From an uncultured Chloroflexia bacterium (GTDB lineage: Bacteria; Chloroflexota; Limnocylindria; Limnocylindrales; CSP1-4), in the NCBI GenBank assembly GCA_963707215.1, contig CAVPPB010000003.1, positions 704,001-768,000 on the forward strand: 64,000 bases of DNA, in the 5' to 3' direction. The translations under genes and the position numbers were made by a program. Positions 8,807 to 46,352 of this stretch are shown piece by piece. Position 1 is the stretch's first letter; each line of letters begins with the position of its first letter. The notes beneath the pieces are model-generated. The model saw nothing but the letters and a program-made list of their open reading frames with translations. It was not told where the DNA came from and ran no database searches.

Positions 8807-8867
8807 GTGATCAGGTCCCCTGCTTGGCGACGGGTCCCGGACCTCGGTCCCCGCACCGGTGGGTCGA

Positions 8868-8918: not shown

Positions 8919-8928
8919 GGCCCGCGGA

Positions 8929-8957: not shown

Positions 8958-8976
8958 ACGAGCGAGTGGTCCGTCG

Positions 8977-9441: not shown

Positions 9442-9450
9442 CGGTCCAGC

Positions 9451-10323: not shown

Positions 10324-12528
<2,205 letters not shown>

Positions 12529-29629: not shown

Positions 29630-31303
29630 ATGAGCGAGGACGAACCGACGGCGCGACCCCTGGTCCCGCAGCCGCTCGCGCGAGGGTCGCGGCGAGCGGT
29701 CGTAGCACCTCATCACCTGGCCACCGGCGCGGGCCTGGGTGTCCTTGCCGCCGGGGGATCCGCGGTCGACGCGGCGATCGCCACCAACGCCGTCCTGGCC
29801 GTCGTGGCACCGAGCGGCTGCGGCCTCGGCGGTGACGCCTTCTGGCTCGTCTGGGACCCGCGCGAGGGCCGCCAGGTCGGCCTCAACGGATCCGGGCGGG
29901 CGGCCCGGGCGCTCTCGGCGGACGCCCTGCTCGCAACGGGCCTGGCACGGATACCCCACCGGGGCCCGCTGACGATCACCGTCCCCGGGGCGGTCCGCTC
30001 GTGGGGCGACGCCCACCGGCGCTGGGGTCGCCTCGACCGCGCCGCGATCCTGGGGCCGGCGATCGCGCTGGCCGAGGGCGGCTTCCCGGCCAGCGACGGC
30101 TTCAGCGGGGCCGTAGAGCGAGCGGCGCCATGGGTGGCGGCGGGGCTCGGGGCGGACAGCGGCTGGGCCGCCCTCTTCCGCCCGAACGGACGACCCTGGC
30201 GACCCGGCGAGATCGTCCGGATGCCGGCCCTCGCGGCGACGCTCCGTCGGATCGCGGATGCCGGTTTCGACGACCTCTACGACGGGGATCTTGCGGAGCG
30301 CCAGGCCAGCGGACTGGCGGCGGCCGGCTCGCCGCTGACCGTGGACGATCTGCGCTCCCACGCCTCGACCTGGGTCGACCCGATCGCCACGAGCTACCGG
30401 GGCACGACGGTCACGACCGTCCCTCCGAACAGCCAGGGGATCACGGCCCTCCAGGCCCTGGCCATCCTGGAGCGTTTCGAGCCGCCGCCGACCGACGCGT
30501 TCGGGCCGGCGGGCGTGGAGGGGGCCGAGTGGATCCACCTCGGCGTCGAGGCGGCCAAGCTGGCCATGGAAGATCGGGACGCCTTCGTAACGGATCCGGA
30601 GCGCATGACGCTCCCGGTCGACCGCCTCCTCGACCCCGACCGGATCGCCGCCATGGCCGCCCGGATCGATCGTCGCCGGGCCGGCCTCGCGCCGGCCGCG
30701 ACGAACCCCCGCGGCGGCGGCACGATCTGGCTCGGCGTGGTCGATGACCAGGGGATGTGCGTGAGCCTCATCGAGTCGAACTACAGCGGCTTCGGTTCTG
30801 GGGTCGCCGACCCGGCCACCGGCATCCACTACCAGAACCGGGGCAGCTACTTCAGCCTGGAGTCCGGCCACCCGAACCGGCTCGAGCCGGCCAAGCGGAC
30901 GCTCCACACCCTGATGCCGGGGATGCTCCTGCGCGAGGGTCGGCCGTGGGTCGTCGTCGGCTCGATGGGCGGCGACGCCCAGCCGCAGATCCACGCCCAG
31001 GTCGTCTCGAACCTCGTCGACGGGGCGGTCGACGTCGCGACGGCCGTCGGGGCACCCCGCTGGTTCGTCGAGCCGGCCGAGCACTTCGCCCCGCCGATCG
31101 AGGTGCGAGCGGAGCCGCGGTTCCCGGCAGGGGTCCTCGATCGCCTGGAGGACATGGGCCACCCGGTGACCCGGACCGACCCCTTCGATCCGTTGCTCGG
31201 GCACTGCCACGCGATCGAGCTGGTCGATGGCGGGCCGCTTGCGGGCGGCAGCCTGGCGGCCGCCACGGACCCCCGCAGCGAGGGCCTCCCGGCGGTCGGC
31301 TGA
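29630..31303 (+). CDS. ggt: Gamma-glutamyltransferase family protein
   Basis: GGSAVDAAIA, GLGGDAF, TVPGAV, PPNSQG, G-T(nucleophile)-IWLGVVD, QNRG, GSMGGDAQPQ, DPRSEG. Confidence 0.94.
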   Translation: MSEDEPTARPLVPQPLARGSRRAVVAPHHLATGAGLGVLAAGGSAVDAAIATNAVLAVVAPSGCGLGGDAFWLVWDPREGRQVGLNGSGRAARALSADALLATGLARIPHRGPLTITVPGAVRSWGDAHRRWGRLDRAAILGPAIALAEGGFPASDGFSGAVERAAPWVAAGLGADSGWAALFRPNGRPWRPGEIVRMPALAATLRRIADAGFDDLYDGDLAERQASGLAAAGSPLTVDDLRSHASTWVDPIATSYRGTTVTTVPPNSQGITALQALAILERFEPPPTDAFGPAGVEGAEWIHLGVEAAKLAMEDRDAFVTDPERMTLPVDRLLDPDRIAAMAARIDRRRAGLAPAATNPRGGGTIWLGVVDDQGMCVSLIESNYSGFGSGVADPATGIHYQNRGSYFSLESGHPNRLEPAKRTLHTLMPGMLLREGRPWVVVGSMGGDAQPQIHAQVVSNLVDGAVDVATAVGAPRWFVEPAEHFAPPIEVRAEPRFPAGVLDRLEDMGHPVTRTDPFDPLLGHCHAIELVDGGPLAGGSLAAATDPRSEGLPAVG

Positions 31304-31390: not shown

Positions 31391-31663
31391 GTGACCTCGA
31401 ACGTCAGCCAGAGCTACCCGTACACCAGCGAGACCGAGGCCGAGCGGGCCGCACGGATCGCCGTCCTCGTCGCGGATCGCGAGGGCCTGGGAGACCGGAT
31501 CGCCGTCGAGACGACCCCGCTGGACAGGGCCGAGCGACGCTGGGTCTACAAGTGCCCGACGGCCGGCTGTGCGGGCCTCCTGCACGCCGCCGGGTACGCC
31601 CTCGATCACCACGCCGTCTTCGTGGTCTGCGACGGGACCTGCGCCAAGACGTTCCTCCGCTGA
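31391..31663 (+). CDS. Small Cys-rich (zinc-ribbon-like) hypothetical protein
   Basis: GGAGG RBS before GTG 31391; CPTAGC...H...CDGTC. Confidence 0.72.
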   Translation: MTSNVSQSYPYTSETEAERAARIAVLVADREGLGDRIAVETTPLDRAERRWVYKCPTAGCAGLLHAAGYALDHHAVFVVCDGTCAKTFLR

Positions 31664-31673
31664 GCGCACGGCC

Positions 31674-32621
31674 GTGACCGGCCCGGGCACCGATCGCGCC
31701 GTTCCGCCCTCCACCGCATCGGCTGCGCCCGCACCGGAAGACGGAACGGCCCTCGGCTCGCCCGGGGCTGCCGACCTGGCGAGCTCGCGGCGGACGCTGG
31801 TCCTCGACGGGATGGGCATCATCGTCACGGCCATCGGCTTCGGGGTGGTCTACGGCCTCTCCGCCCGGGAGGCCGGCCTGTCCATGGTCGAGACGATGGC
31901 CATGAGCGTCTTCGTCTTTGCCGGCGCCGCCCAGTTCGCCGCCGTCGGCTACCTGGTCCAGGGGCTGGGCTGGCCGGCCATCCTCCTGCTGACCGCCTTC
32001 CTCAACGCCCGACATCTCCTCTACTCCGCCGCCATGGTCCCCTGGCTCGGCGGCGTGTCCCGATCCCGCCGGGCGGTGATGGCCCACGTGCTCACCGACG
32101 AGGCCTTCGCGCTCTCGATCGCCCACTTCCGGCGGATCGGGCGAGTGGACCTGGGCGGCTACTGGTGGGCCGCCATCGTCGTCACCTTCATCCCCTGGAA
32201 CCTGGCAACGCTCGCCGGGGTCCTGCTGGGCGGTGCCATCGCGGACCCGAGCCAGCTCGGGATCGACGTCATCTTCCCGGCCGCCATGGCCGGGCTGGCC
32301 CTGGGTCTCGCGGTCGGGCGGCGCGAGATCGTCGCGGCCGGTGCCGGGGCCGTCATCGCGGTCGTCGCCTCGCTGGCCTGGGATCCGGCCGGCGGGATCA
32401 TCGTCGGCGGGATCGCCGGGCCGGCGGCCGCCATGGCCCTGCCGAGGAGCCGGACCGCCCCGATGAACCCGGTCCCGCTGGGTACCCGTGCCGTGACCGA
32501 TGCCATCGACGTCGAGTCCGCCGAGGAGGCCGGGCTGGCCGGTTCCGGGGAGGGCGTCGAGGCGTCGGCCGACGGCGGTGCGGACCTCCCTCCGGACCCG
32601 GAGATCGGGGTCACGCCGTGA
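31674..32621 (+). CDS. azlC: AzlC family branched-chain amino acid exporter permease
   Basis: MSVFVFAGAAQF, LNARHLLYS, LTDEAFA. Confidence 0.92.
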   Translation: MTGPGTDRAVPPSTASAAPAPEDGTALGSPGAADLASSRRTLVLDGMGIIVTAIGFGVVYGLSAREAGLSMVETMAMSVFVFAGAAQFAAVGYLVQGLGWPAILLLTAFLNARHLLYSAAMVPWLGGVSRSRRAVMAHVLTDEAFALSIAHFRRIGRVDLGGYWWAAIVVTFIPWNLATLAGVLLGGAIADPSQLGIDVIFPAAMAGLALGLAVGRREIVAAGAGAVIAVVASLAWDPAGGIIVGGIAGPAAAMALPRSRTAPMNPVPLGTRAVTDAIDVESAEEAGLAGSGEGVEASADGGADLPPDPEIGVTP

Positions 32622-32950: not shown

Positions 32951-33831
32951 GGTCTCGCTCCCGGCGGAACGGCCGGGTCCAGGATCCACGCGGCCGCCGG
33001 CCCGGGGTCGAGGTAGGCGGCATGGCCGAGCCCATCGAGCGCGACGACGGTCCGTCCACCGGCTGCGGCGAGGTGCTCCGCGATGGTCCTGAAGACCGCC
33101 ACCGACCTCGTGCCGAACGCGAACCGGATGTCGACGGACGAGGAACGCAGCGCTGGCAGGTCGGGGTGCTCGGCCGTCAGGGCGAGGTCCTCCCGCACCA
33201 GGGCCTCGGCGTTCTCGTCGCCACGGGCGGCGTACCACTCGCGGCCCGGGAGCGGCTCGAAGAGGCCCCGCGACGAGGCCCCGGGACCGGCCGCCGCCCG
33301 GCCGAGCGCGGCGACAGCACCGACCCAGTCACCGGGACGATCCGCGAGGTGGGCCGCGACGGCCTCGTCGCCGCGCCGTCGGAGGGTGGCGCCCTCGGGG
33401 ACGAGCGCGAGGTAGCCAGGCTCGAAGACCAGGGCGCGCGCCACGATCGAGGGGTGCCGGAGCGCCAGCTCGAGCGCCACGATGCCGCCGGCACTGCCCC
33501 CGAAGACGGTGGCGCTCCCGAGACCCAGGGCGGCCAGGAGCGCGGCCGCGTCGTCGGCATGGATCGCGGAAGCGCCGGTCGGCCAGCCGTCCCGTCCGCT
33601 CCGGCGGGTCCCTCGGCGGTCGTAGGTCACGACCGTCCGGCCGGGCAGCCGCTCAGCCAGCGGGCGGAGGACCTCGGCGTCCTCGTCGGCCGCCCCGACC
33701 AGGAGCACGGCTGGGCCCGTCCCCCGGATCTCGGCATAGAGGCGGGTCCCGTTGACCGCGACCTCCGCCGGACGTGGCTGCTCGGCGCCGGGCAGGGCGT
33801 CCGGGTTCGGCCCGGTCATCGGGTGGCTCAC
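32947..33831 (-). CDS. Alpha/beta fold hydrolase
   Basis: TYDRRG, FGGSAGG nucleophile elbow, LGH C-terminal His. Confidence 0.9.
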   Translation of the reverse strand: MSHPMTGPNPDALPGAEQPRPAEVAVNGTRLYAEIRGTGPAVLLVGAADEDAEVLRPLAERLPGRTVVTYDRRGTRRSGRDGWPTGASAIHADDAAALLAALGLGSATVFGGSAGGIVALELALRHPSIVARALVFEPGYLALVPEGATLRRRGDEAVAAHLADRPGDWVGAVAALGRAAAGPGASSRGLFEPLPGREWYAARGDENAEALVREDLALTAEHPDLPALRSSSVDIRFAFGTRSVAVFRTIAEHLAAAGGRTVVALDGLGHAAYLDPGPAAAWILDPAVPPGARP

Positions 33832-35021
33832 CCTGGGTTCCCGTCGGTCGAGGCCAGCAGGCTCGTCGGGTCGCTGGTCGCCAGCACCTCGGCGAGGATG
33901 GCGCCCCAGAGCATGGGCTCGTCGGCGACGAAGAGCCCGGCCGTGCCCCGGTACGGGCGCAGGTCGTCGAGCGAAGCGGCGCCACCGTCGTAGACCTCGA
34001 TGACCGTCCGGTCGCGCTCGACGACGGCCCGGTAGGCCGCCTCCACGGCCGGTGCGTCGGGGGCCGCGACCCGCCGGCCCAGCCGCAGGTACATCGCCCC
34101 GAGCGAGGTCCAGATGGCGGTGCCCTGGTAGTCCGGCACCAGGCGCCGCTGGAGCGGATCCTCCGCCTCGGGGTCGCGGCGGCTCGCGTAGCGCAGCGGC
34201 AGGGGCGCCGCCAGGCCGGCCCGACGCGCGCCGGCCAGGGCCTCGCGGAGACCGTCGTCGTCGTCGAGCGCCCCCACCTGCCAGGGCAGGACCGCGGCAT
34301 CGCCGGTCGGCTCGTCGGTGTCGGCCCGATCGACCATCGTCCCGTCGGGCCGCCGGAAGCGGGCCAGGAAGCGGTCTCGGACGTCGGCGGTGGCCGGGCT
34401 GGCGAACCAGTCCGTCTCCCGGAGGACCCGGTCCAGCAGGACGAGCATCGTGTTGTTGGCGCCGTTCGAACGGGTCCGCAGGGTGTCCCGGTGGGACGAG
34501 TAGGCCCGCTCGTCGCGGACCAGGCCGGTGCCCGGGTCGACGACCTCGAGGGCGTAGCGCCGGATCTCGGCTCGAAGCCAGTCGCCATGCCGGGCGACCA
34601 GCCGGTCCCCTTCTGGGCCGACGACCTGGAGCGAGCGGAGGACCAGGGGCAGCGAGTCGGCGCCGAGGGTCCAGACGTCCCGGGGACGGCGACCGGGGAA
34701 GATCGTCGTCGTGACCCGGCCCTCGCGTGACCAGGCGTCGAGGGCCCAGGCCAGGCTGGCGACGGCACGCTCTCCCAGGTCCAGCGTCATGAGCGAGGGC
34801 ACGGCGTAGGCGAGGTCACGGGTCCAGAGCTGGACGAAATGACCGCCGGAGGCCGCCAGGTACTCGCCCGTCCAGCAGGCTTCCACGGCGGCCCGGGCGA
34901 TGGCCCCGGCGTCCGCGCCGGGGAGCCGCCGGGGCCCGCGCAGCCGACGCCGGACGATCCGGCCGGCGGAGGTCAGGTAGCTCGGCCAGAGGGCCGGGTC
35001 GAGCTGGGCACCGAGGCTCAT
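33828..35021 (-). CDS. Putative (alpha/alpha)6-barrel glycoside hydrolase-like protein
   Basis: ASGGHFVQLWTRD and DYQGTAIWTSLG resemble motifs of six-hairpin glycosidase/glycogen-debranching domains. Confidence 0.6.
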   Translation of the reverse strand: MSLGAQLDPALWPSYLTSAGRIVRRRLRGPRRLPGADAGAIARAAVEACWTGEYLAASGGHFVQLWTRDLAYAVPSLMTLDLGERAVASLAWALDAWSREGRVTTTIFPGRRPRDVWTLGADSLPLVLRSLQVVGPEGDRLVARHGDWLRAEIRRYALEVVDPGTGLVRDERAYSSHRDTLRTRSNGANNTMLVLLDRVLRETDWFASPATADVRDRFLARFRRPDGTMVDRADTDEPTGDAAVLPWQVGALDDDDGLREALAGARRAGLAAPLPLRYASRRDPEAEDPLQRRLVPDYQGTAIWTSLGAMYLRLGRRVAAPDAPAVEAAYRAVVERDRTVIEVYDGGAASLDDLRPYRGTAGLFVADEPMLWGAILAEVLATSDPTSLLASTDGNPG

Positions 35022-35031
35022 CGCGTCCGAC

Positions 35032-35406
35032 TCAGCGGGCGACCCGGCGGGCGTCGACCTCGATCTCGACACGCAGTGCCGGATCGATGAGGCCGGCCAC
35101 CACGACCAGCGTGGCAGCCGGCCGGATGGCGCCGAAGGCCTCGCCGTGGACCCGGAGCACGGTCGGGATGTCGGCCGGATCGACGACGAAGACGCGTGTC
35201 CGCACGACGTCGGCTAGGGTGAAGCCGCCCTCGGCGAGTGCCCGCTCGATGATCCCGAGCGCCGCCCGGGCCTGGGTCTCCGCGTCGCCCTCGGCCCCCC
35301 CGGTCGTCCCGGCCACCCAGCAGTCGTCGCCGTCCACGACGGCCCGGCTGTAGCCGGCCGGGCCCTCCCACGGCGCGCCGCTGGAGATCCGGCCGCGCTC
35401 GGTCAT
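35032..35406 (-). CDS. RidA/YjgF family protein
   Basis: SSGAPWE..GYSRAV, VAGTT, DVVRTRVF, RPAAT, VEIEVDA. Confidence 0.93.
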   Translation of the reverse strand: MTERGRISSGAPWEGPAGYSRAVVDGDDCWVAGTTGGAEGDAETQARAALGIIERALAEGGFTLADVVRTRVFVVDPADIPTVLRVHGEAFGAIRPAATLVVVAGLIDPALRVEIEVDARRVAR

Positions 35407-36668
35407 GTCCGGCGCCAGGCGGCGATGACGGGATCCCGTGCGATGGCCAGGAGGAGGGCCGTGAGGAGCGTGGTCCGCGGCACGATCGAGGCGACCTCGA
35501 GGTATTCCTCGGGCGAGTGGTCCATCCCGCCGATGGGACCCAGGCCGTCGAGGCTGGGGATCCCCATGTCGGCGGTCGTGTTGGCGTCGGAGGCCCCACC
35601 GGTCGCCGTGTCGCGGAGCTCGAAGCCCAGACGGCCGGCGAGGTCGACGGCCAGCTCGACGAGCCGTCCCGACCGCTCGAGCTTCTCCATGGGCCAGTGG
35701 CGGGCCACCTCCTCGAGCTCGATCGCCACGTCGGGCACGGCGGGCGCGGCGGCAAGGTCCCCGATCGCCGACTCGACGGCCTCGAGGGACTCACGGGTGA
35801 CCGCCCGGACGTCCACCTCGAGAACGGCCCGCTCGGCCACGACGTTGGGGCGGGTCCCGCCCTCCAGGACCCCGACGTTGACGGTCACGCCCGGCCAGCG
35901 GTCGTTGAGGGCATGAAGGGCGACGGTCAGGTGGGCCCCGGCGAGGGTCGCGCTCCGGCCCTTCTCCGGCTCGACCCCGGCATGGGCGGCGCGGCCGCGG
36001 ACCGTGACCCGGAGGTGAAGGTTGCCCTTGCGCGACGAGACGATGTCGCCGTTCGCCCGGGCGCATTCGAGGACGAGGCAGGCATCGGCGCCACTGGCCA
36101 CCTCGCGGATGATCGGCGTCGAGGACGGTGACCCGATCTCCTCGTCGGGATTGGCCACGAAGACGAGCTCCCGGAACGGCAGGAGCGGGACGCCGCTCTC
36201 TTCGCCCCCGCGCGAGACGCGCAGCGTACGGACGGCGTAGAGGCCGGCCAGCAGGCCCGACTTCATGTCGGTGACGCCGGGCCCTCGGGCGATGCCGTCC
36301 TCCATGCGGAACGGACGCTCGGCCACGGTCCCCTCGGGGAAGACGGTGTCCATGTGGCCGATGAGGACCAGGCGCGGACCGGATGGGTCGCCGACGATCC
36401 GGCCGACGACCGTGCCTCCCAGTCGGCTCGCGCCATCCGGATGGCGTACGACATCGGCTCCGAGACCGGCCAGGAACGCCTCGACGAAGTCACCGACCCG
36501 GTCGACACCCTCCGGCGTGAAGCTGCCACAGTCGATGTCTACGAGCCGGGCGAGGTCATCGAGGAAGGCTGGTTCGTCGGCCCGGACCGCCGCCTCGAGC
36601 ATGGCCAGCTCGGTCGGCTCGATGCCATGGACCGGCGGCAACCCGAGGTCGATCGCGGACGCTCCCAT
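35403..36668 (-). CDS. M20 family metallopeptidase (glutamate carboxypeptidase-like)
   Basis: IGHMDTVF, GPGVTDMKSG, DEEIGS, AHAG, GGASDAN, DGLGPIG..HSPEE. Confidence 0.93.
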   Translation of the reverse strand: MGASAIDLGLPPVHGIEPTELAMLEAAVRADEPAFLDDLARLVDIDCGSFTPEGVDRVGDFVEAFLAGLGADVVRHPDGASRLGGTVVGRIVGDPSGPRLVLIGHMDTVFPEGTVAERPFRMEDGIARGPGVTDMKSGLLAGLYAVRTLRVSRGGEESGVPLLPFRELVFVANPDEEIGSPSSTPIIREVASGADACLVLECARANGDIVSSRKGNLHLRVTVRGRAAHAGVEPEKGRSATLAGAHLTVALHALNDRWPGVTVNVGVLEGGTRPNVVAERAVLEVDVRAVTRESLEAVESAIGDLAAAPAVPDVAIELEEVARHWPMEKLERSGRLVELAVDLAGRLGFELRDTATGGASDANTTADMGIPSLDGLGPIGGMDHSPEEYLEVASIVPRTTLLTALLLAIARDPVIAAWRRT

Positions 36669-36722
36669 CGGGGCCGAGTCTACGGTCTGGAGCGCCCTGC
36701 GGCTTGCTATGCTGCGCCGACC

Positions 36723-38480
36723 GTGCGACTCGTCGAGATCCGCCTCCTCGAGGGGCCGAACGTCTACCGTCTGGACCCGACGGTCAAGATCGAGGTCGGC
36801 GTGGGGCGTCGGCGGACCTGGCGCGGGGACCGGACCGGCTCCCCGGGCGCCGGGCCGCGCCTGGGAGAGGTCGCCCCGACCCGTGACCTGCCCGACGAGG
36901 TGGTCGAGCTGGTGGCCTGGTGTCGGCGGCTCCGGACCGACGCGGGCGATGGCGTGGGCGGCGTGGCAGCGCACCGGGCTGCCGACCCGGGGCACTGGGT
37001 CGTGAGCTTCCCCTGGGCCGGGGCCGAGCGTGCCCGGGCGATCGCCGAAGCGGCCGTGGACCTGGTCGCCGCCGGCGTCGCCACCGGCCGCCGGGCCGTC
37101 CCGACCGGCGCCCAGGCCCGTCGGCTGGCGCGCTGGCAGGCGCGCATCGCGGATGCCCGGACGAGCCCGCCCGGCTGGTTCCGCGATGAGGACCGGCGGA
37201 TGCCGATCGTCTCGATCAGCGGCACGAACGGCAAGTCGACCGTCAGCCGGCTGATCGCCCACATCCTCCGCGGCTCCGGCCGGCGGGTCGGGATGACGAC
37301 CTCGGACGGCGTCTACGTGGGCGAGCGGCTCGTTGAGCCGGGTGACTGGACCGGGCCCGGCGGCGCCGCGATGCTCCTCTCGCGCTCCGACCTCGACCTG
37401 GCCGTGCTGGAGACCGCCCGCGGCGGCATCCTGCTTCGGGGTGTCGGCTACGAGTCGAACGACGCCAGCGTCCTCACGAACGTCGCCTCGGACCACCTCG
37501 ACCTCCAGGGCATCCATACGCTCGCCGAGCTCGCCGACGTCAAGGCCACCATCTGCCGGATCACCCGGCCCGACGGTTGGGTCGTCCTCAACGCCGACGA
37601 CCCGCTGGTCGCCGCGGTGGCCCGCCGGGTCACCGCCAGGGTCGCCCTCTTCTCGCTCCAGGGCGAGCGCTCCGGGCGGATCCGCCGCCACGTCGCCCGG
37701 GGCGGCCGCGCCTACCTGGTGATCGACGGGGCGATCGTCGAGGTGGAGAGCGGTGCGACACGGGCGATCGCCGGCGTCCGGGAACTGCCCATCGCCCTGG
37801 GCGGGCTGGCCCGCTACAACGTCGCCAATGCGCTCGCGGCCGCAGGCGGGGCTCGGGCGCTCGGAGCCACGCTCGATGAGGTCACCGAGGGCCTCCGGTC
37901 CTTCGAACCGTCGACCGATCGCTCCCCTGGCCGCCTCAACCTGTTCCGGCTCGGGTCGCGGGTCGTCCTCGTCGACTTCGCCCACAACGAGGCGGGCGTC
38001 GAGGCGATCCTCGAGGTGGCCGCCGAGATCGCCGGCGGGGCTGCCGGCCGAGCGTCGCCGATCACCGCCATCGTCGGGACCGCCGGCGACCGACCCGAGG
38101 ACAGCCTGATCGCCATCGGACGGGTCGCCGCCGAGCGGGCCGACCGGGTCGTGATCAAGGAGACCCTCGGCTACCTCCGCGGCAGGGAGCGCGGGGAGAT
38201 CGTCGCCCGTCTGCTGGACGGGGTGGCTGCCGGCGGTGGGGATCCGGACGCGGTGCCCGTCTACGTATCGGAGACGGCCGCCCTGCGATCGGAGCTGGCC
38301 CGCGCCGACGAGACCAGCGACGGCCGGCGCCAGCTCTCGGGCATCCTGGTCCTTCTCTGTCACGAGGAGCGTCCGGAGGTCCTGGGGCTCCTGGGCGAGC
38401 TCGGAGCCCGCGAGCTCGACGTGATGGCCGAGCTGCAGGACCTGGCGCCCAGGCTCGGAGATCGGTCCCGACACGACTGA
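36723..38480 (+). CDS. Cyanophycin synthetase-like Mur ligase protein (degenerate N domain + M domain, no ATP-grasp domain)
   Basis: Starts VRLVEIRLLEGPNVY (CphA N-terminal signature), then SGTNGKST, GDWTGP, LETARGGIL, TNVASDHL, LNADDP, PGRLN, DFAHN, GDR. About 585 aa. Confidence 0.85.
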   Translation: MRLVEIRLLEGPNVYRLDPTVKIEVGVGRRRTWRGDRTGSPGAGPRLGEVAPTRDLPDEVVELVAWCRRLRTDAGDGVGGVAAHRAADPGHWVVSFPWAGAERARAIAEAAVDLVAAGVATGRRAVPTGAQARRLARWQARIADARTSPPGWFRDEDRRMPIVSISGTNGKSTVSRLIAHILRGSGRRVGMTTSDGVYVGERLVEPGDWTGPGGAAMLLSRSDLDLAVLETARGGILLRGVGYESNDASVLTNVASDHLDLQGIHTLAELADVKATICRITRPDGWVVLNADDPLVAAVARRVTARVALFSLQGERSGRIRRHVARGGRAYLVIDGAIVEVESGATRAIAGVRELPIALGGLARYNVANALAAAGGARALGATLDEVTEGLRSFEPSTDRSPGRLNLFRLGSRVVLVDFAHNEAGVEAILEVAAEIAGGAAGRASPITAIVGTAGDRPEDSLIAIGRVAAERADRVVIKETLGYLRGRERGEIVARLLDGVAAGGGDPDAVPVYVSETAALRSELARADETSDGRRQLSGILVLLCHEERPEVLGLLGELGARELDVMAELQDLAPRLGDRSRHD

Positions 38481-38571
38481 CACCCGTCCGGGCAGCAGCC
38501 ACGCGCGCCGATCAGGCGCGCGCGGGCGGCCCCCGGGCCGACCGCGGCCCGGGTCGTTCAGGTACGCGTGA

Positions 38572-38973
38572 TCAGCCGGGCACCCGGCGGCGACCGCGGA
38601 GCATCCGAAGATGGCCCAGGAGCCCGATCAGAAGGATCGCCGTCGACCAGACGGGCAGCGTCCGGGCGACCGGGTCGGGCAGGAAGATGTCGGACACCCG
38701 CCCGTCGTCGGCGCCGAGATCCTCGGCGACCCCGGTCAGGGGACAGCGACCGCGGTTCGCCAGGAACACCCCGATCTCGACGGCGACGAGGCCGGCCGCG
38801 ACGGCTGTCGCCCGATCGAAGCGGCCACGAAGGCCGTCCCAGGTGAACCGAAGGATCGACCCGAGCAGCACGACGAAGATCGCGGAGTGGACGGTCTTGA
38901 TGGCGAAGAGCGCGATGCCCCGCGCCATTCCAGCGGCCCGCTGTCCCGTCTCCATCGCCGACTCGCTGGCCAT
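38572..38973 (-). CDS. Small membrane protein
   Basis: IKTVHSAIF, NRGRCPLTGVAE, VSDIFLPD; 3 TM segments. Start overlaps the cphA stop. Confidence 0.75.
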   Translation of the reverse strand: MASESAMETGQRAAGMARGIALFAIKTVHSAIFVVLLGSILRFTWDGLRGRFDRATAVAAGLVAVEIGVFLANRGRCPLTGVAEDLGADDGRVSDIFLPDPVARTLPVWSTAILLIGLLGHLRMLRGRRRVPG

Positions 38974-41921
38974 CAGCCCTCGGGCACCTCGAGCTCGCCC
39001 GGATCGGCGAACGCAGTCGTCCCGCGCTGGGCCCCGGCCAGCGACTGGGCCTCCTTGTAGACGCCGATCGCGTCGTCGACGCACATGACGACGAGGTCGC
39101 CGGGCACGGCCCGCCGCAGGGCTGCCCGGGCGGCCGTCAGCTCGTCGAGGATCGTCTCGGCTCGACTCGCCCGGGAAGTCCCGGCGTCGCGGGCCCGACG
39201 GGTCCCGGTCACCACGTTCCCGGCGCTCTCGCCCGGCTTGCGGCCCCGGAGGTTGCGGTCCTCGCGGACGACGATCTCGTCGAAGGCGCCCGCGGCGAGC
39301 TCGCCATAGGTGACCTGGTCGTCGTCGAGTCGGTCGCCGGGGATCCCGATGACGCCGATGGCCCGGCCCGTCCGACCCGGCTTCGCCTCGGCGACGCCCC
39401 GGGCGGTCGGCGGTCCGTCGGGCTCCTCCATCATCCGGGTCACGAAATCCGAGAGCTGGCGCATGCCGTCGACGTTGTGGCAGTAGTCGATGATCACGCG
39501 GACGCCGCCGACCTCGAGGAGGTTGAGCCGGCCCGGCGCCTGGAAGAACGACGTGGTGAAGGTTCGCAGCCCCTGGCGGATGTCGTGGAGGTGAGCGCCC
39601 GACGCCCAGGCGGCAGCCGCGGCCGCGAGGGCGTTGGCGACGTTCATCCGGGCCCGGCCGCCGAACGTCGCCGGGATCAGGTGGGTGTAGAGGACCGGCA
39701 TCGTGCGGGGGCCTAGGCGCAGGACGACGAGCTCGCCCTCGGGAGTCCGCTGGAGGCAGAACGCAGCGCCGCCCCGGCCGAGGTGCCCGTCCACGCGGTC
39801 ATAGCCGTCCTCGCCCTTCCCGGTCTGCATCGAGAAGAGGACGACCCGACCCGACGAGTGGCGGGCCATCCGGGCGACCAGCGGGTCGTCGGCGTTGAGG
39901 ACGGCCGTGCCCGAGCGCGGGACCGCTTCGACGATGACGGCCTTGACGTTGGCCAGCTGGCCGAGCGAGGTGATCCCGCCCAGGCCGAGGTGGTCGCCGG
40001 TGACATTCGTGACGACGGCCACGTCGTTGCGGTCGTAGCCCAGGCCCTCGCGGAGGATGCCGCCCCGGGCGACCTCGAAGACGGCCGTGTCCACGGTCGG
40101 GTTCTGGAGGACCATCTGGGCCGACTTCGGGCCCGACATGTCGCCGCGCTTGATCATCCGGCCGTCGACGACGATGCCATCGGTCGAGGTCATGCCGACC
40201 CGCCGGCCCATCAGCTTGAGGATGTGCGCGAGCATCCGGACGGTCGTGGTCTTGCCGTTCGTCCCGGTCACCGCAAGGATCGGGATGCGGGCCGGCTTCC
40301 CGGGCGGGAAGAGCAGATCCATGACCGGGCGGGCCACGTACTGCGGCTCGCCCTCGGTCGGGTGGGTGTGCATCCGGAAGCCGGGCGCGGCGTTGACCTC
40401 GACGATCGCGCCTCCGGTCTCGCGGACCGGCGTGGCGATGTCGGGGCAGATGAAGTCGATGCCGGCGACGTCGAGGCCCACGACCCTGGCCGCGGTCTCG
40501 GCGATCTCGACATTGTCGGGATGGGACTCCATCGTCCGGTCGATCGAGGTGCCGCCGGTCGACATGTTCCCGGTCAGGGCAAGCTTGATCCAGGCCTCCT
40601 TGGGCGGGATCCCGTCGATGGCGAAGCCCTGGGCGGCGACCAGCTCCTCGGCCCGCTCGTCGACGGCGATCTTCGTCAGGACCTTCTCGTGGCCGATGCC
40701 GCGACGGGGATCGGCATTGGCGATGTCGACGAGCTCCCGGACGGTGTGGATGCCGTCGCCGGTCACCGAAGCCGGGACACGCTCGGCCACGGCCGCCACC
40801 CTGCCCCCGATGACCAGGACCCGGTAGTCGGCACCGGCGACGTAGCTCTCGACGACGACGTCCCCGGAACGGCTCTGGCGGAGCGACTCCGGGAAGGCGG
40901 CCCGGACGTCGGCCTCGGAGCGCAGGTCGAGGGCCACCCCACGACCGTGGTTGCCGTCGAGCGGCTTGGTCACGCAGGGGTAGCCGATCCGCTCCGCCGC
41001 CGCGACGGCCTCGTCCGCCGTCTCCACGACGACGGCCCGCGGGACCGGCAGGCCGGCCGAGTCGAGAAGCTTGTTGGTCAGGCTCTTGTCGGAGGCGATG
41101 TCGACAGCGATCGCCGGCGTCCGCGAGGTCATCGTCGCCCGGATCCGCTGCTGGTGGACCCCCTGGCCGAGCTGCACCAGGCTGTAGCGATCGAGGCGGA
41201 TGTAGGGGATGTCGCGGCTGACGGCCTCGTCGATCAGGGCCTGGGTCGACGGGCCGAAGGCCTGCCGCTCGGCCAGCCGGATGAGGCGCTCGAGCTCGCT
41301 CCCGAAGTCGAAGTCGGAGGCCGACGGGTCCACCAGGTGGTTGACCAGGCCGACCGCCACCCTGCCAGCCTGCAGGCCGACGTTCTCCTCGCGGTACTCG
41401 TAGATGACGTTGTACTGGCCGGTCGGTCCGGCGCCGCGGGTCTTGCCGTGGCGGACGTCGGTCCCGGCGAGGTTCTGGAGCTCCAGAGCGACGTGCTCGG
41501 CGACGTGGCCGGCCCAGGTGCCGTCGCGGAGCCGGGTCAGGAAGCCGCCCCGCCGACCCAGCGAGCAGGCGTGGTCCTCGAGGCTCGGTAGGAGCTCGAC
41601 GAGGGTATCCACGAAGCCGGGGATCCGATCCGACGGGTACTCCTCCAGCGATCCGAGGTCGACGAGCATCCGGACCACCGGCTGGCGCGACCAGTAGTTG
41701 GCCCCGCGGAGGACCCGCGTCTCGAGGATCCGCAGGTCGGGCCGCGGACCGGCCGGGGCCTTGGGCCGCTTCGAGGCCCGGGAACGCGTCGCCGCCGGGG
41801 CCTTCGCCGCCCGTGCCTTGGGCGTCGCGCCCTTGCCGGCTGGCTCCCGCTCGGTGCCGCCGGTTCCCGCCTTGGCATCGGTCGACGCGGACCTGGATGA
41901 CCGGGCGGCGCGTTGGGCCAC
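38973..41921 (-). CDS. cphA: Cyanophycin synthetase
   Basis: RGANYWS, HACSLGRRGGF, GTWAGHVAEH, FGPST, LVQLGQG, KPLDGNHGRGV, EVNAAPGFRMH, GTNGKTT, EVARGG, PGRLN, DYCHN. Confidence 0.97.
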   Translation of the reverse strand: MAQRAARSSRSASTDAKAGTGGTEREPAGKGATPKARAAKAPAATRSRASKRPKAPAGPRPDLRILETRVLRGANYWSRQPVVRMLVDLGSLEEYPSDRIPGFVDTLVELLPSLEDHACSLGRRGGFLTRLRDGTWAGHVAEHVALELQNLAGTDVRHGKTRGAGPTGQYNVIYEYREENVGLQAGRVAVGLVNHLVDPSASDFDFGSELERLIRLAERQAFGPSTQALIDEAVSRDIPYIRLDRYSLVQLGQGVHQQRIRATMTSRTPAIAVDIASDKSLTNKLLDSAGLPVPRAVVVETADEAVAAAERIGYPCVTKPLDGNHGRGVALDLRSEADVRAAFPESLRQSRSGDVVVESYVAGADYRVLVIGGRVAAVAERVPASVTGDGIHTVRELVDIANADPRRGIGHEKVLTKIAVDERAEELVAAQGFAIDGIPPKEAWIKLALTGNMSTGGTSIDRTMESHPDNVEIAETAARVVGLDVAGIDFICPDIATPVRETGGAIVEVNAAPGFRMHTHPTEGEPQYVARPVMDLLFPPGKPARIPILAVTGTNGKTTTVRMLAHILKLMGRRVGMTSTDGIVVDGRMIKRGDMSGPKSAQMVLQNPTVDTAVFEVARGGILREGLGYDRNDVAVVTNVTGDHLGLGGITSLGQLANVKAVIVEAVPRSGTAVLNADDPLVARMARHSSGRVVLFSMQTGKGEDGYDRVDGHLGRGGAAFCLQRTPEGELVVLRLGPRTMPVLYTHLIPATFGGRARMNVANALAAAAAAWASGAHLHDIRQGLRTFTTSFFQAPGRLNLLEVGGVRVIIDYCHNVDGMRQLSDFVTRMMEEPDGPPTARGVAEAKPGRTGRAIGVIGIPGDRLDDDQVTYGELAAGAFDEIVVREDRNLRGRKPGESAGNVVTGTRRARDAGTSRASRAETILDELTAARAALRRAVPGDLVVMCVDDAIGVYKEAQSLAGAQRGTTAFADPGELEVPEG

Positions 41922-41962
41922 GGGCCTGCTCCCTCCTCGTCCGGCCGTCGGGGGCGGCCGGA

Positions 41963-42799
41963 TCAGCTCTCGGCGGCCTCCACCCCGGCCGCCGTCCGAA
42001 GAGTGGGGGTCGCGATCCGCTGGCGTCGGACCAGGTCGAAACGATAACCGGCCGGCAGCGAGTGGAGGACGACGTTGCTCACCATGACCGGCCGGTGCCC
42101 GCGGACGTCCCAGGCGTCGGTCTCGGAGGCCGACCCATCCACGACCGTGACGCTGCCCCGGCCGATGACCTCCAGGACATGGTCCGGGCCGACGACGCCG
42201 GCCGTGTCCTCGTCGACTCCCAGCCCCAGCAGGCTGGGGTTCTGGGCGATCAGGCTCAGCAACCGGCCCAGCCGGTTCCGCTGCTGGAAGTGCTGGTCGA
42301 CGATCACCCCGGGCAGCACCCCGAGCCCGACCGCGATCTGGGCCATCCGCTGCTTCGGCGTCCCGCCGGAGGTGCCGAAGGCGATCATGTGGCTGCTCAT
42401 CGCCGAGGCTCCCGCGGAGGTCCCCGCGACGACGTTGCCTGCTCGATGGGACTCCAGGATCGCCGCCGCGAGGCGGGTGGCGCCCAGCGTCGCCGAGAGC
42501 TTCAGCTGGTTGCCGCCGGTCAGGAAGACGCCGGTCGAGGCCCCGACCAGGGCGACGGCGGCCTCGTCGTCGGCCTCGGCTCGGGTCGTCGCGTGGATCG
42601 GATGGACACGACGGACACCGAGATCACCGAAGACCTCCCGGTAGCGCTCGGCCGCCTCGACCCCCAGCGACGAGGCCGTGCTGATGACCGCGATCTCGGC
42701 CCGCGGGCCACCGGCCAGCGCCACGAAGCGCTGGAGGATGACACGGTCGCGGAACCTGTCCTCCGCGCCCCCGATGACGATGACGGTGCCGTCGGCCAC
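41963..42799 (-). CDS. cphB: Cyanophycinase
   Basis: IVIGGAED, FLTGGNQL, AGTSAGA (catalytic Ser), VDQHFQQRNRLGRL, GVDEDTA. Confidence 0.96.
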   Translation of the reverse strand: MADGTVIVIGGAEDRFRDRVILQRFVALAGGPRAEIAVISTASSLGVEAAERYREVFGDLGVRRVHPIHATTRAEADDEAAVALVGASTGVFLTGGNQLKLSATLGATRLAAAILESHRAGNVVAGTSAGASAMSSHMIAFGTSGGTPKQRMAQIAVGLGVLPGVIVDQHFQQRNRLGRLLSLIAQNPSLLGLGVDEDTAGVVGPDHVLEVIGRGSVTVVDGSASETDAWDVRGHRPVMVSNVVLHSLPAGYRFDLVRRQRIATPTLRTAAGVEAAES

Positions 42800-42926
42800 G
42801 ACCCGGCGAGCCCTCCCGAACGTTCGCGTGAGGATAGCAAACGGGCCGGAGCCCGCCGGCGAGGCCCCGCGGGGATGACCCGGCGGAGGCGGTCGCGCCC
42901 GGCAGGGTGGACCGCCGACGGCCGGT

Positions 42927-45017
42927 TCAGTGGATCGGGCCGACCGCCTGGTCCAGCGAGGCGCCCCGGAACTCCGACGTGTCCACGAGGCGATGGATCC
43001 TGCTGAGCAGCTCGCGGGCGCTGGCGGGCTTGACCAGGTAGTCGCTGCAGCCGATCGCCTCGGCCTCGGCGATGTCGGCCGCGCTCGAGTTGGCACTGAC
43101 GATCACGATAGGGACGTCGAGGCCGGCCGAGCGGACCTGGCGCGCCAGCTCCAGGCCGCTCCCATCGCCGAGGCCGACGTCGAGCACGATGATGCCGGGC
43201 GTGGACAGCTGGAGCGCCTCTTGGGCAGCCGCCAGGCTCGCCGCCTGCTGGACCTCGTAGCCGGCGCTCGAGAGGACATCGGTGACGAGCTCACGGGCCG
43301 TCGCGTCGTCTTCGACCACCAGGACCGGCACGGACCCCGGCGGCGGAGCGGGCGGCAGTGGCATGATCCGGATCGAGCGGTCGCGCGGCGACGCGATCCG
43401 GACCCCCGGCAGCGAGACGACGAAGGTGCTGCCGATCCCGTACGTGCTGGAAACGTCGATCGAGCCGCCGTGGAGCTCGCAGAGCCGCCGGGCGATCGCC
43501 AGACCCAGCCCCGTGCCGGAAGAGGTCGAGCCCAAACGCTCGAAGGGCTCGAAGACGCGGTCGAGGCTCTCAGCCGGGATGCCGACCCCGGTGTCGTGGA
43601 CGGCGATCCGGACGTCCGCTTCGTCGATGGACGAGTCGATCCAGACGCGCCCACCGGGGGCCGTGAACTTGATCGCGTTGGTCACTAGATTGAGCAGCAC
43701 CTGCCGGAGGCGGAGTGGATCCACCAGGACCCTGGCCTCGGTACGGTCCACCGCCGCCAGCTCGACGCCACGATCGCGAGCGACCGGGGCGGCGGCATCC
43801 ACGGCCTCGAGGATCAGGGCCTGGAGCTCGATCGGCTCGGGGTGCAGCTCAAGGTGGCCCGAGTTGATCCGGGCGAGGTCCACGACGTCGTCGATGAGGC
43901 CCAGGAGGTGCTTGCCGCTGGCGTGGATCTTGGTGCCCAGCTCGCGCATCCGATCCTCGGTCAGGGCGCCGAGCGCGGGATCGCTGACGAGCTCGGCCGC
44001 GATCAGGATCGAGTGCACCGGCGTGCGCAGCTCGTGGCTGACCGTGGCCAGGAATCGGAGGCGCTGCTGCGCCCCCTGCTCGAGCTCGGCGTTGAGGCGG
44101 TCGAGCTCCTCGACGAGGCGGGTCATCCGGCCGTGGATCCGGGCGTTGACCAGGGCGCCTGCGGCGTGCGCCGCGAGGGCGATGGCGAGCTCGCGATCCG
44201 CGTCATCGAACTCCGCCCGGCCGACCTTGTTGGCGAAGTAGAGCCTGGCCAGCATCTCGCCGTCCTTGACGACCGGGACCCCGAGGAACGACGTCATGAC
44301 CGGGTGGCCTCTCGGCACGCCGACGGATGCCTGGTGAGCCCGGAGGTCGGCCAGCATCACCGGACCGCTGTCGGCGGTGATCAGCCCGAGCACGCCCCTG
44401 CCGACCGGGAGCGGCCCCATCCGCTCGACGGTCTCGGGCTCGATGCCCTGGTGCAGGAACCGGTCGGTCGCCCCCTCGTCGCCGACGACGAGCATCGCGG
44501 CGTACTGGGCGCCCATGATCGACCGCGCCATCGTCAGGATGAGGTCGTGCACCTGCGCGGGCTCCCGGACGTCGGCCAGGGCGAGCATCGCCGAGCGGAT
44601 CCTGGATTCAGAGTCGCGGGCCCCGTCGATGACGGACTGCAGCGGGCCTCGATCGATGACGGTGACGAGCAGGGCGTCCGGTCCTGCGAGGGGCCGCTCC
44701 GGTCCGCCGGGCCGATCGTGCCACGGCCGCACGAGCAGACAGACGGGCATCGCGCGACCATCCGGGGCGACCATCCGGCACTCCACGTCGACGGCATCGG
44801 ACCGGCCGGCGAGGACCGCGCGCGCCCGTTCGACGATGCCAGGCGCGTCGCCGGGATCGAGCGCCCCGGCCAGGGACCGAACCTTGAGAACGCCAAGGTC
44901 CATGCCGACCAGCTCTCCGAACGGAGGGTTCGCGTGGACCCACCGGAGATCTCGGTCCAGCACCGCCATCGCCAGTGGGACGGCGTCGACCAGGTCGCGG
45001 ATGTGCTCGGATCCCAT
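42927..45017 (-). CDS. Hybrid sensor histidine kinase (PAS-GAF-HisKA-HATPase-REC)
   Basis: PAS (VHANPPF), DosS-like GAF (SVGVPRGHPVMTSFLGVPV), SHELRTP, NLVTNAIKFT, DTGVGI, GTGLGL, C-terminal receiver (VEDD...LDV...KP). Confidence 0.93.
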   Translation of the reverse strand: MGSEHIRDLVDAVPLAMAVLDRDLRWVHANPPFGELVGMDLGVLKVRSLAGALDPGDAPGIVERARAVLAGRSDAVDVECRMVAPDGRAMPVCLLVRPWHDRPGGPERPLAGPDALLVTVIDRGPLQSVIDGARDSESRIRSAMLALADVREPAQVHDLILTMARSIMGAQYAAMLVVGDEGATDRFLHQGIEPETVERMGPLPVGRGVLGLITADSGPVMLADLRAHQASVGVPRGHPVMTSFLGVPVVKDGEMLARLYFANKVGRAEFDDADRELAIALAAHAAGALVNARIHGRMTRLVEELDRLNAELEQGAQQRLRFLATVSHELRTPVHSILIAAELVSDPALGALTEDRMRELGTKIHASGKHLLGLIDDVVDLARINSGHLELHPEPIELQALILEAVDAAAPVARDRGVELAAVDRTEARVLVDPLRLRQVLLNLVTNAIKFTAPGGRVWIDSSIDEADVRIAVHDTGVGIPAESLDRVFEPFERLGSTSSGTGLGLAIARRLCELHGGSIDVSSTYGIGSTFVVSLPGVRIASPRDRSIRIMPLPPAPPPGSVPVLVVEDDATARELVTDVLSSAGYEVQQAASLAAAQEALQLSTPGIIVLDVGLGDGSGLELARQVRSAGLDVPIVIVSANSSAADIAEAEAIGCSDYLVKPASARELLSRIHRLVDTSEFRGASLDQAVGPIH

Positions 45018-45365
45018 GTGCCGCCCAGGCCCTCTCCGCTCCAAGCCCGGCGGGATCGCCGGGGGACGCGCGCCGGTCGGGCGATTGTGCTCGTTGGAAC
45101 CGAGGGCGTCTACCCGCATCCGGGGGGTCTCCGGGCCGGGGTGCCGCTCCGGGTGCAGGGGACGGCCTGCTGCATTCGCGGGGCCGCTCCATCGGCTGCT
45201 GCGTGCGGCGCCCGTTGACGGCGCCGGTATGGTTGAGGCTCGGCTCACCGCTGCCGTGCCGGATGTGGTTCCCAGGGTACGTGCCCGCCCGGGGAGGACC
45301 GACCGGCGCTCGGGGAGGGGCGGGGTCGATCATGGGCCTGCGTCTTCCGGGGGAGGAGGACGAGG

Positions 45366-46163
45366 ATGGCAGGGGGTGTCTTCGGCCGACCCGAGATCGG
45401 CTCGACCGGTCCGCACGTAGAGGAGCGGGCCGCGCCGGTCCCGGGCGGGGCGCGCTCGAGCAGCGCCACCGGTCCGGTCCGCCCACCCGAGACGGCTCCG
45501 GCGAGCCCGATCCGGGTGATGGTGGTGGATGATCACCTGGCGTTCGCGGAGGCGCTGGCCATGGTCATCACCGCGCGCCCGGATCTCGACTGCCCGGTCA
45601 TCGCGACGTCGATCACCGACGGCCTGCGGGCCGCGGAGCGCGAGGCCCCGGACGTGATCCTGCTCGACGTGCTGCTCCCGGACGGCGACGGCGTCGACGC
45701 GATCGACCGGTTCCGCGACGCCGCGCCCGGTACCCGGATCCTGGTGCTGACCGGCCACATGGACCTCGACGTGCTGACGCGAGCCGCGGCCTCGGGGGCA
45801 AGCGGCTTCCTCCAGAAGGAGAGCAACGTCGAGGCGATCGTCCGGGCCATCCGGGCGGCACGGGACGGCACGATCCTCGTCGAGCAGGCGACGCTGACCT
45901 CGATCCTCGGCCGGGTCCGCCAGGGCGCCGCCTCGGCCGGGGCGGCGGACGACCGTCCCCACCTGACCGCCCGCGAGATGGACGTCCTCGCCCTGATGGG
46001 CGAGGGGCTCGACCCGCACGCCATCGCCCAGCTGCTCGAGATCAGCCTCAATACCTGTCGTGGCTACCAGAAGAGCCTCATGGCCAAGCTGGACGCCCAC
46101 AGCCAGCTCGAGGCCGTCGTGATCGCCACGCGCCGAGGGATCATCCAGCCGCCCAAGAGCTGA
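45366..46163 (+). CDS. NarL/FixJ family response regulator
   Basis: VMVVDDH, LLDVLLPDGDG, GASGFLQK, LuxR HTH LTAREMDVL...KLDAHSQLEAV. Confidence 0.94.
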   Translation: MAGGVFGRPEIGSTGPHVEERAAPVPGGARSSSATGPVRPPETAPASPIRVMVVDDHLAFAEALAMVITARPDLDCPVIATSITDGLRAAEREAPDVILLDVLLPDGDGVDAIDRFRDAAPGTRILVLTGHMDLDVLTRAAASGASGFLQKESNVEAIVRAIRAARDGTILVEQATLTSILGRVRQGAASAGAADDRPHLTAREMDVLALMGEGLDPHAIAQLLEISLNTCRGYQKSLMAKLDAHSQLEAVVIATRRGIIQPPKS

Positions 46164-46216
46164 CCCGGCACCGGCCGGTGACCCGGCCGTCGCGCCGGCG
46201 CCGGGCCGCCCGCGTC

Positions 46217-46236
46217 GACCCCCAAGACTGGGGGTC
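46217..46236. promoter_or_regulatory. Perfect inverted repeat, candidate operator upstream of the giant oxidase gene
   Basis: GACCCCCA-AGAC-TGGGGGTC, with no U-tract after it. Confidence 0.45.
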
Positions 46237-46352
46237 TCGCCCCTCCAGTTGCGGGCTCGTCGCCCGGTCCATCGACCCCGACCATAGTCGCGTCCGCCCG
46301 TGGAGGGAACGTGGCGGTGGAGGATGACCGGTCCGGTCGAGGAGGGAAATCG

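Follow-up and report, generated by a model that had tools for sequence, protein, structure and literature searches.

A CphA-like ligase without the ATP-grasp domain beside the cyanophycin genes of an uncultured Chloroflexia bacterium

A stretch of 64,000 nucleotides from an uncultured Chloroflexia bacterium (contig CAVPPB010000003.1, positions 704,001 to 768,000; assembly GCA_963707215.1), referred to below as the window, carries a cyanophycin synthetase gene (cphA1), a cyanophycinase gene (cphB) and, convergent with cphA1 across a gap of 492 bp, a gene encoding a protein of 585 amino acids (aa). This protein, the target of our analysis, is a diverged CphA-type N-terminal (N) domain fused straight to a CphA-type Mur-ligase (M) domain, without the ATP-grasp (G) domain; we call such proteins G-less. 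The genes and domains concerned are listed here.

36723..38480, + strand: G-less CphA-like ligase (N+M), 585 aa; from the open reading frame (ORF), the frame of high G+C at third codon positions (GC3) and the N-termini of homologues; stop at 38480
36723..37166, + strand: diverged CphA-type N domain, residues 1 to ~148, without Cx19HxxEH; from profile alignment (hhalign), hidden Markov model (HMM) and fold search
37215..37847, + strand: Mur_ligase_M, M-domain core, residues 165-375; Pfam, 68.2 bits (cut-off 24)
37221..37241, + strand: P-loop GTNGKST, ATP-binding, residues 167-173; from the sequence
37929..38309, + strand: Mur_ligase_C, M-domain lid, residues 403-529; Pfam, 33.0 bits (cut-off 28.4)
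38973..41921, - strand: cphA1, full-length cyanophycin synthetase with N, ATP-grasp and Mur domains; TIGR02068, 1122 bits (cut-off 850)
41963..43096, - strand: cphB, cyanophycinase, upstream of cphA1 on the same strand; TIGR02069, 249 bits (cut-off 126.6), and Peptidase_S51

Domain architecture and conserved residues

The G+C content of the window is ~72%, so long spurious ORFs are plentiful, and the forward frame carrying the target is open already from 36354. Near 36700 the codon-position G+C of this frame, until then like that of an antisense strand (GC1 > GC3), takes on a coding pattern (GC3 of 0.85-0.98), and the N-termini of close homologues fall at MRLVEIRLLEGPN; the GTG at 36723 is therefore the likely start, and an in-frame ATG at 36627 may be an alternative. 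The stretch upstream of the start is part of a gene for an M20 peptidase on the reverse strand. Proteins of ~585 aa cover 100% of the target at 63-76% identity. An earlier, sequence-only reading of the window had placed a 585-aa ORF at 36723..38480, in agreement with the GC3 frame and the homologue starts, and the motifs it quoted are all present: IRLLEGPNVY (residues 6-15), GTNGKST (167-173), ETARGG (230-235), DHL (257-259) and DFAHN (418-422).

Pfam assigns the target to Mur_ligase_M (165-375) and Mur_ligase_C (403-529) alone, and finds no ATP-grasp family in it even at E ≤ 10. Both Mur families (PF08245 and PF02875) score above their gathering thresholds and the P-loop has the form GxxGK[ST], as in the Mur ligase superfamily. 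BLASTP aligns target residues 149-500 with residues 539-906 of the window CphA (41% identity, E = 4e-70) and residues 1-89 with 63-145 (33% identity, E = 5e-4), and gives no alignment of note to CphA residues 220-540. The cyanophycin synthetase model TIGR02068 scores 379.7 bits on the target, with model positions 474-840 alone matched (below the CphA1 cut-off of 850), MurE scores ~107.6-112 bits (TIGR01085 cut-off 257.3), and the PgsB/CapB model TIGR04012 scores 26.9 bits, in the P-loop region only (cut-off 222.7). Judged by the TIGR02068 score, far above those for MurE and PgsB, the M domain is specifically CphA-like; a grouping with MurE or CapB, which the earlier reading had set up as the competing outcome, is not seen (380 bits for the CphA M domain, ~112 for MurE, 27 for PgsB). 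The best solved relatives of the target are likewise CphA1 chains (E = 2e-79), with MurE-like chains following from 3e-18.

The first ~150 residues are, by profile comparison and structure prediction, a CphA N domain, with a likeness beyond chance. Aligning the N-terminal profile of the target's family to a CphA1 N-domain profile with hhalign gives a probability of 98.4% (E = 6e-15, 143 columns), and the target reaches 33.8 bits against an HMM of the CphA1 N domain. Residues 1-155 were also modelled alone with AlphaFold (predicted local distance difference test, pLDDT, of 82); in a PDB fold search with this model the top nine matches are CphA1 chains (template modelling (TM) score 0.52-0.61, probability 0.99-1.00), CphA2 stands at rank 11, and the other matches are noise. 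The translated window CphA1 carries the Cx19HxxEH motif; aligned to the CphA1 N-domain profile, neither the target nor the family consensus has it. This motif is the metallopeptidase site of the N domain and occurs in about 80% of CphA1s, and hence is not strictly defining (PMC9262961). The most conserved N-domain stretch of the family (L9, G11, P12 and N13) aligns with the loop that holds Y14 and I17 of SuCphA1, two residues that contact the M domain in CphA1 (PMC9262961); the polymer at the CphA1 M site sits between the N domain and the M core (PMC9427784). The full-length AlphaFold model of the target (pLDDT 90.1, predicted TM score 0.90) aligns to SuCphA1 over 889 columns as N, a gap for G, and then M, with a TM score by query length of 0.74 versus 0.63 for M-only alignments, which suggests a CphA1-like arrangement of N and M in the predicted structure. 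The CphA-type N-terminus, the entry into a Mur domain after ~160 aa (Mur_ligase_M begins at residue 165) and the loss of both the ATP-grasp domain and the C..H..EH site had all been noted in the earlier reading, and stand.

In TeCphA1, ATP and Mg are bound by N497, K499, T500, T522, E558, R731 and H748, with K499 inside the P-loop at 495-501 (PMC9427784). Reading from the alignment, the target equivalents are N169 and K171 (for N497 and K499), S172/T173 and the T191/T192 region (for T500 and T522), and E230, R404 and H421 (for E558, R731 and H748). All 18 ATP, Mg and catalytic positions checked are conserved in the target. An alignment of 30 family members shows no variation at G167, T168, N169, K171, T173, E230, R233, G234, G235, N253, D257 and H258, nor at K274, N290, D293, N369, R404, D418, H421, N422, G455, D456, R457 and R486, and the key catalytic positions are invariant or nearly so across 50 T-type and 20 D-type members (two subfamilies that are described below). 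Both G-less subfamilies keep nearly all of the columns whose conservation among 94 CphA1 M domains is at least 85% (four differ in both), a near-complete retention that argues for similar chemistry. By this conservation the target appears to be an enzyme under selection rather than a relic, and the possible standalone ligase of the sequence-only reading is supported, as a catalytically competent protein, by the invariant residues.

The lid of Mur ligases binds the incoming amino acid; the MurE counterpart for comparison is the DNPR motif. Class-specific differences between G-less proteins and CphA1s are few and are concentrated in or near this lid. The CphA1 consensus [RK][EQ]D-x-[DN]-L-RGR (Asp in 84%) is replaced in the G-less class by [KR]-E-[TKL]-x-x-Y-L-RGR, with a one-residue insertion, the Asp gone and a near-invariant Tyr484. 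Similarly, GDR-R-D-E-D of CphA1 becomes GDR-[PTS]-D-x-x, with the Arg (85%) lost and the last Asp (84%) lost in the T-type. Position 473 changes from Phe (87% in CphA1) to Ala/Ser or Pro, and position 214 from Ser (91% in CphA1) to Gly; the G-less class also has an aromatic residue at 209 and Arg at 239. With these substitutions in the lid a different amino acid is possible, and a non-Arg substrate would be consistent with the lost acidic residues, which we take as only a lead.

Compared with known enzymes, the target shares homologous N and M domains, the P-loop and the Mg/ATP residues with CphA1 (TIGR02068; PDB 7LG5/7LGJ/7LGQ and 7WAC-7WAF), but CphA1 has the G domain and the primer-generating Cx19HxxEH site, and the target lies in a separate lineage of the M-domain tree with changes in the lid. 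CphA2 keeps G, has a truncated and inactive M (PMC10273328), and is also without the N-domain hydrolytic site (PMC10273328, PMC9262961). Like CphA2, the target is a CphA derivative with one ligase activity in which that site has been dispensed with; unlike CphA2, it is without G and keeps an untruncated, apparently active M domain in which both Pfam Mur domains and every catalytic residue are present. It is thus the reciprocal of CphA2 (N and M intact, G absent), as had been remarked from the sequence. With MurE and MurF the target shares the Mur middle and C-terminal domains and the ATP-dependent acyl-phosphate mechanism, but it carries a CphA N domain in place of their UDP-binding N-terminal domain, and its MurE score is far below the cut-off.

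The family and its genomic contexts

Sequence searches place the target in a widespread family of G-less N+M ligases with hundreds of relatives of ~530-600 aa. A word-indexed search returned at least 120 clusters, all of 579-624 aa and 63-76% identical over 99-100% of the query; the named ones among the listed close clusters are Chloroflexota or Candidatus Limnocylindrales. In an exhaustive search of representatives, proteins of 517-600 aa match the target along its full length (35-45% identity), and proteins of CphA1 length match over M only. G-less relatives in other phyla are 34-43% identical to the target. The search for N+M-only homologues proposed in the sequence-only reading thus found proteins that are consistently ~530-600 aa long, not full-length second CphAs.

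Among representatives and loci, the G-less proteins fall into three types by their N region: 50 have a target-like N domain (T-type), 20 have an N region matching or resembling the Pfam family DUF4938 (PF16292; D-type), and 17 have the canonical PF18921 N domain. The T and D types recognise each other weakly. The D-type DUF4938-Mur ligases form a sister subfamily (about 560-580 aa, also G-less, and in one M-tree clade with the target's family); their N region matches PF16292 (102 bits for P0177), while that of the target does not. DUF4938, of unknown function in Pfam, would by these comparisons behave here as a diverged CphA N domain plus linker.

In a FastTree phylogeny of 180 M domains, the T and D types form one group (support 99), whereas the PF18921-type G-less proteins are scattered among the CphA1s (12 changes). 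The latter (~600-640 aa, e.g. P0215, P0223, P0237, P0261, P0247 and P0187) may be independent losses of G, or fragments and mis-assembled gene calls. With the PF18921-type rows excluded, IQ-TREE (80-81 rows) again sets T and D apart from all CphA1 M domains (support 99). On these trees the T+D family is old and of single origin, and the target, which had been called a paralogue of the neighbouring CphA, proves to be a member of an old separate lineage and not a local duplicate. The root was unstable, with outgroup branches of more than four changes per site: a single MurT-like outgroup, from the Sphaerobacteraceae locus L002, puts it inside the D-type G-less group, and with E. coli MurE plus MurF it moves to Bacillota CphA1s on long branches, the G-less group then being nested within. 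N+M may be ancestral or may stem from an ancient loss of G; that N+M is ancestral and CphA1 arose by insertion of the ATP-grasp domain would be a bold reading. In L002 the MurT-like gene (11423-12889, + strand; NF045635, 277 bits, below the cut-off) is ~6 kb downstream of the G-less homologue.

Members of the family are labelled 'Mur ligase family protein' (NCBI), 'cyanophycin synthetase' (IMG), and 'hypothetical protein' or 'putative cyanophycin synthetase' (Atlas clusters); for G-less proteins the label 'cyanophycin synthetase' is wrong. Some actinobacterial T-type ligases have long C-terminal extensions (ORFs of 766, 761 and 944 aa in L019, L024 and L025, and P0163 of 745 aa, with TPR repeats, PF12688, behind Mur_ligase_C). 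Another protein, P0133 (972 aa), consists of two tandem units of CphA-M-type Mur_ligase_M and Mur_ligase_C, with no N or G domain.

We collected at least 77 loci by scanning genome contigs with the family alignment; most are CphA1 loci caught via shared M motifs, and the sample is biased by the search patterns. The loci were classified by tblastn with the window proteins, with flanks fetched to 10 kb on either side. Among the matches listed, cphA is found within the flanks in nine out of 12 loci that were retrieved via a G-less homologue (L001, L004, L007, L013, L014, L018, L020, L033 and L045), at a distance of 0.1-7.6 kb, and cphB is also found in eight of these nine (all but L004). Two of the loci without cphA are cut by contig ends: L017 is on a contig of 2.5 kb, and L021 ends 7 bases past the match. 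A G-less gene is present in eight out of 65 loci retrieved via CphA1, again among the matches listed. T-type genes convergent with cphA are found in L019, L024 and L025 (Actinomycetota), and D-type genes adjoin cphA in cphB-cphA clusters of Acidobacteriota, Pseudomonadota and Myxococcota (L047, L059, L069, L074 and L075). The D-type gene follows cphA on the same strand in L059 (11354-13078), L069 (11413-13191), L074 (11342-13312) and L075 (about 11400-13041), starting 3-10 bp past cphA in the first three, and is convergent with it in L047 (about 11975-13500, - strand).

The synteny of relatives with cphA and cphB, which had been suggested as a check, is therefore observed. About 6% of complete genomes have cphA1 (PMC9974463), so proximity by chance can be neglected. 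The differences in gene order among lineages speak for repeated selection and not for one inherited block: the arrangement is convergent in Chloroflexota, Thermomicrobiota and Actinomycetota, whereas in Pseudomonadota, Myxococcota and Acidobacteriota the gene is co-directional with cphA and abuts it. In Actinomycetota the G-less gene lies directly behind a pair of short-chain dehydrogenase/reductase (SDR) genes, fabG-like and then enoyl-ACP-reductase-like (L004:8403-9984, L013:8481-9983, L020:8258-9779, L021:8445-9978, L033:6261-7786, and on the - strand L019:14042-15619 and L025:13450-15186), with a moaA-like gene and a DUF3099 gene further upstream.

The CphA1s that have a G-less neighbour are themselves related. 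In the IQ-TREE phylogeny of M domains they fall in one clade of 12 rows (SH-aLRT branch support 98) that spans Chloroflexota, Thermomicrobiota, Actinomycetota, Acidobacteriota, Pseudomonadota and Myxococcota; 11 of the 12 rows, all but L066, have a G-less gene in the locus or window. The 19 locus-derived CphA1 rows outside this clade have none, although some are from the same phyla (L055, L067, L036, L056 and L063). In the FastTree phylogeny the partner rows lie within a group of 24 rows (support 94) that also holds alphaproteobacterial CphA1s.

Two further arrangements were seen among the loci. In an actinobacterial metagenome-assembled genome (MAG; L018:10001-11700) the G-less gene is split across frames, and the N-terminal region is not family-like in the frame of the M domain; cphA and cphB of this locus likewise give fragmented alignments, which makes assembly errors likely. 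Most of the tandem cphA pairs are betaproteobacterial, and one is from Myxococcota (L046, L048, L049, L063, L068, L072, L076 and L077; L053 is cut by a contig end); their upstream copy has N and G, but its M region is short and matches the M-domain HMM weakly, at 141-177 bits. These pairs are the known arrangement of two neighbouring cphA copies mentioned in PMC10687191. In the Tetrasphaera MAGs of that study the longer of two neighbouring copies is more expressed than 'the shorter copy', which is expressed as well (metatranscriptomes). Going by the Terrabacter loci L019 and L024, this shorter Tetrasphaera copy is probably a member of the G-less family.

Neighbouring genes in the window

Beyond the ligase, cphA1 and cphB, the following features were found in the window.

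29630-31303, + strand: gamma-glutamyltranspeptidase
31569-32621, + strand: AzlC-like
33828-35072, - strand: ORF of 414 aa without a family match, with a strong coding GC3 signal
35403..~36668, - strand: M20-family metallopeptidase, carboxypeptidase-G2-like; Pfam M20 and M20_dimer; NF004788, 266 bits, below the cut-off of 349; start inferred
Beyond cphB: hybrid histidine kinase (-) and LuxR-type regulator (+)

The M20 gene is divergent from the target, with a gap of ~54 bp. The same divergent pair recurs in a Chloroflexia locus (L001; M20 at 8652-9872, - strand, 63% identity), and both the window and this locus have AzlC/AzlD-like genes slightly further upstream; no M20 partner of the G-less ligase was seen in the loci of other phyla. 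The peptidase could be a dipeptidase for cyanophycin breakdown products. For the 414-aa ORF, Pfam and NCBIfam give no match, and tblastn finds a counterpart in none of the 77 loci.

By Pfam the window CphA1 has the CphA N domain, six ATP-grasp-type families and both Mur domains. In its longest ORF an extension of ~60 residues, rich in Ala, Lys, Pro and Arg, precedes the N domain (the TIGR02068 match begins at residue 64); translation may begin further downstream, or else the protein has a basic low-complexity tail. Just past the two-component genes that flank cphB is an ORF of ~3000 aa (46182-55181, + strand) with repeated Big_9 (bacterial Ig) and cadherin-like domains. A scan of 36500-39100 for promoters and terminators, and an Rfam scan of 33000-46500, found nothing.

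Possible function and its alternatives

We observed an architecture of N and M alone, intact catalytic residues, an old and broad family, and genetic linkage to one CphA1 subclade; from these we infer a substrate (cyanophycin), the carboxylate used and the amino acid added. With modest confidence, we propose that the target is an ATP-dependent ligase that acts on cyanophycin or its intermediates, in trans beside a complete CphA1. The M domain of CphA1 uses ATP to join Arg to the beta-carboxylate of the Asp at the C-terminus of cyanophycin. In the target, cyanophycin chains, or short (beta-Asp-Arg)n-Asp, would be bound between the N domain and the M core, as at the M site of CphA1. A free carboxylate, most plausibly the beta-carboxylate of an undecorated Asp, would be activated by ATP as an acyl phosphate, and an amino acid would then be coupled to it (Arg or Lys by default, with another possible). 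Such an enzyme may cap or repair undecorated Asp, help initiation or add a different residue; having no G domain, it cannot extend the Asp backbone.

Several observations weigh against this proposal. PF18921, the Pfam model of the CphA N domain, is undetected in the target at E ≤ 10. No G-less gene appears in 57 of the 65 loci retrieved via CphA1, among the matches listed, so that the ligase would be dispensable for cyanophycin synthesis generally. The 18 key M-domain positions are intact in all 16 partner CphA1s, including that of the window; a second ligase is therefore not obviously needed. The Sphaerobacteraceae locus L002 genuinely departs from the linkage, as no cphA lies in its 3.4 kb of upstream and 10 kb of downstream sequence. 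Finally, the row of SDR genes and ligase in Actinomycetota looks like an operon unrelated to cyanophycin; with this neighbourhood conserved, the actinobacterial loci are not mutually independent, and part of their linkage to cphA may be inherited synteny and not independent evidence.

A first alternative is that the target is active as a ligase but on a substrate that has nothing to do with cyanophycin, for example a carboxylate of the cell envelope or of a small molecule, its proximity to cphBA being incidental or inherited synteny. The position of the actinobacterial gene behind the SDR pair in a moaA/DUF3099 neighbourhood, the absence of cphA from the flanks of L002, where a MurT-like gene is 6 kb away, and the changes at several CphA1-conserved lid positions are all in line with this. 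But the linkage to cphA recurs in differing gene orders across phyla, the N domain is the polymer-binding domain of CphA, and nearly all CphA1-conserved M residues are retained, and we regard such a substrate as unlikely.

Still less probable is a non-catalytic or regulatory role, in which the protein would be a subunit of hetero-oligomers with CphA1 and would alter, for example, chain length, granule formation or activity. Its co-inheritance with one CphA1 subclade would suit such a subunit, as would the oligomerisation of CphA enzymes via their G and M domains (PMC10273328), but residues that bind ATP and Mg and activate the substrate are invariant across about 70 diverged sequences, which is unexpected for a purely structural role. 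A purely regulatory role, one of the options raised in the sequence-only reading, thus appears unlikely.

The last candidate, a decaying remnant of a second cphA after a recent loss of the G domain, has the adjacent full cphA in its favour, as well as the PF18921-type G-less proteins among the CphA1 clades (which could be remnants or assembly artefacts), but it has next to no probability: the intact ORF, the at least 120 clusters of relatives of the same length at 63-76% identity, and a clade apart from all CphA1 M domains (support 99; 41% identity to the neighbouring M domain) rule out a recent deletion. Trans-complementation of a defective CphA1 M domain was also considered and is ruled out, as each of the 16 partner CphA1s keeps all 18 key positions.

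If the target is a ligase acting on cyanophycin, as we propose, a bolder and tentative suggestion, which we ourselves hold doubtful, is that cyanophycin synthesis around one CphA1 subclade is a two-enzyme system, with a G-less ligase as the second, dedicated enzyme, which attaches something other than Arg or uses a carboxylate that CphA1 does not use (e.g. an internal undecorated Asp, or the free alpha-carboxylate of an Arg side chain). Hosts with both enzymes would then make a chemically distinct cyanophycin-like polymer.

We found no account of a G-less CphA-like ligase in the openly searchable literature (earlier notice elsewhere is possible), and a single, unrelated paper for DUF4938. The available portions of two bioinformatic studies of the gene clusters (PMC10206079, PMC9974463) mention no ligase neighbour, and a phylogeny of the Mur family, in its available portion, treats CphA as a fusion of ATP-grasp and Mur (PMC11915815). 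The mislabelling in IMG inflates cphA copy counts in surveys, e.g. of wastewater microbiomes. A G-less ligase would also offer a separable side-chain ligase for tailored cyanophycins. Accounts of cyanophycin synthesis have so far assigned it to one enzyme, CphA1, or to CphA2 for recycling; a conserved and apparently active G-less relative, co-inherited with cphB-cphA in at least six phyla (NCBI ranks), would add an unrecognised enzyme to the pathway, and could explain variation in polymer composition or primer handling among non-cyanobacterial producers.

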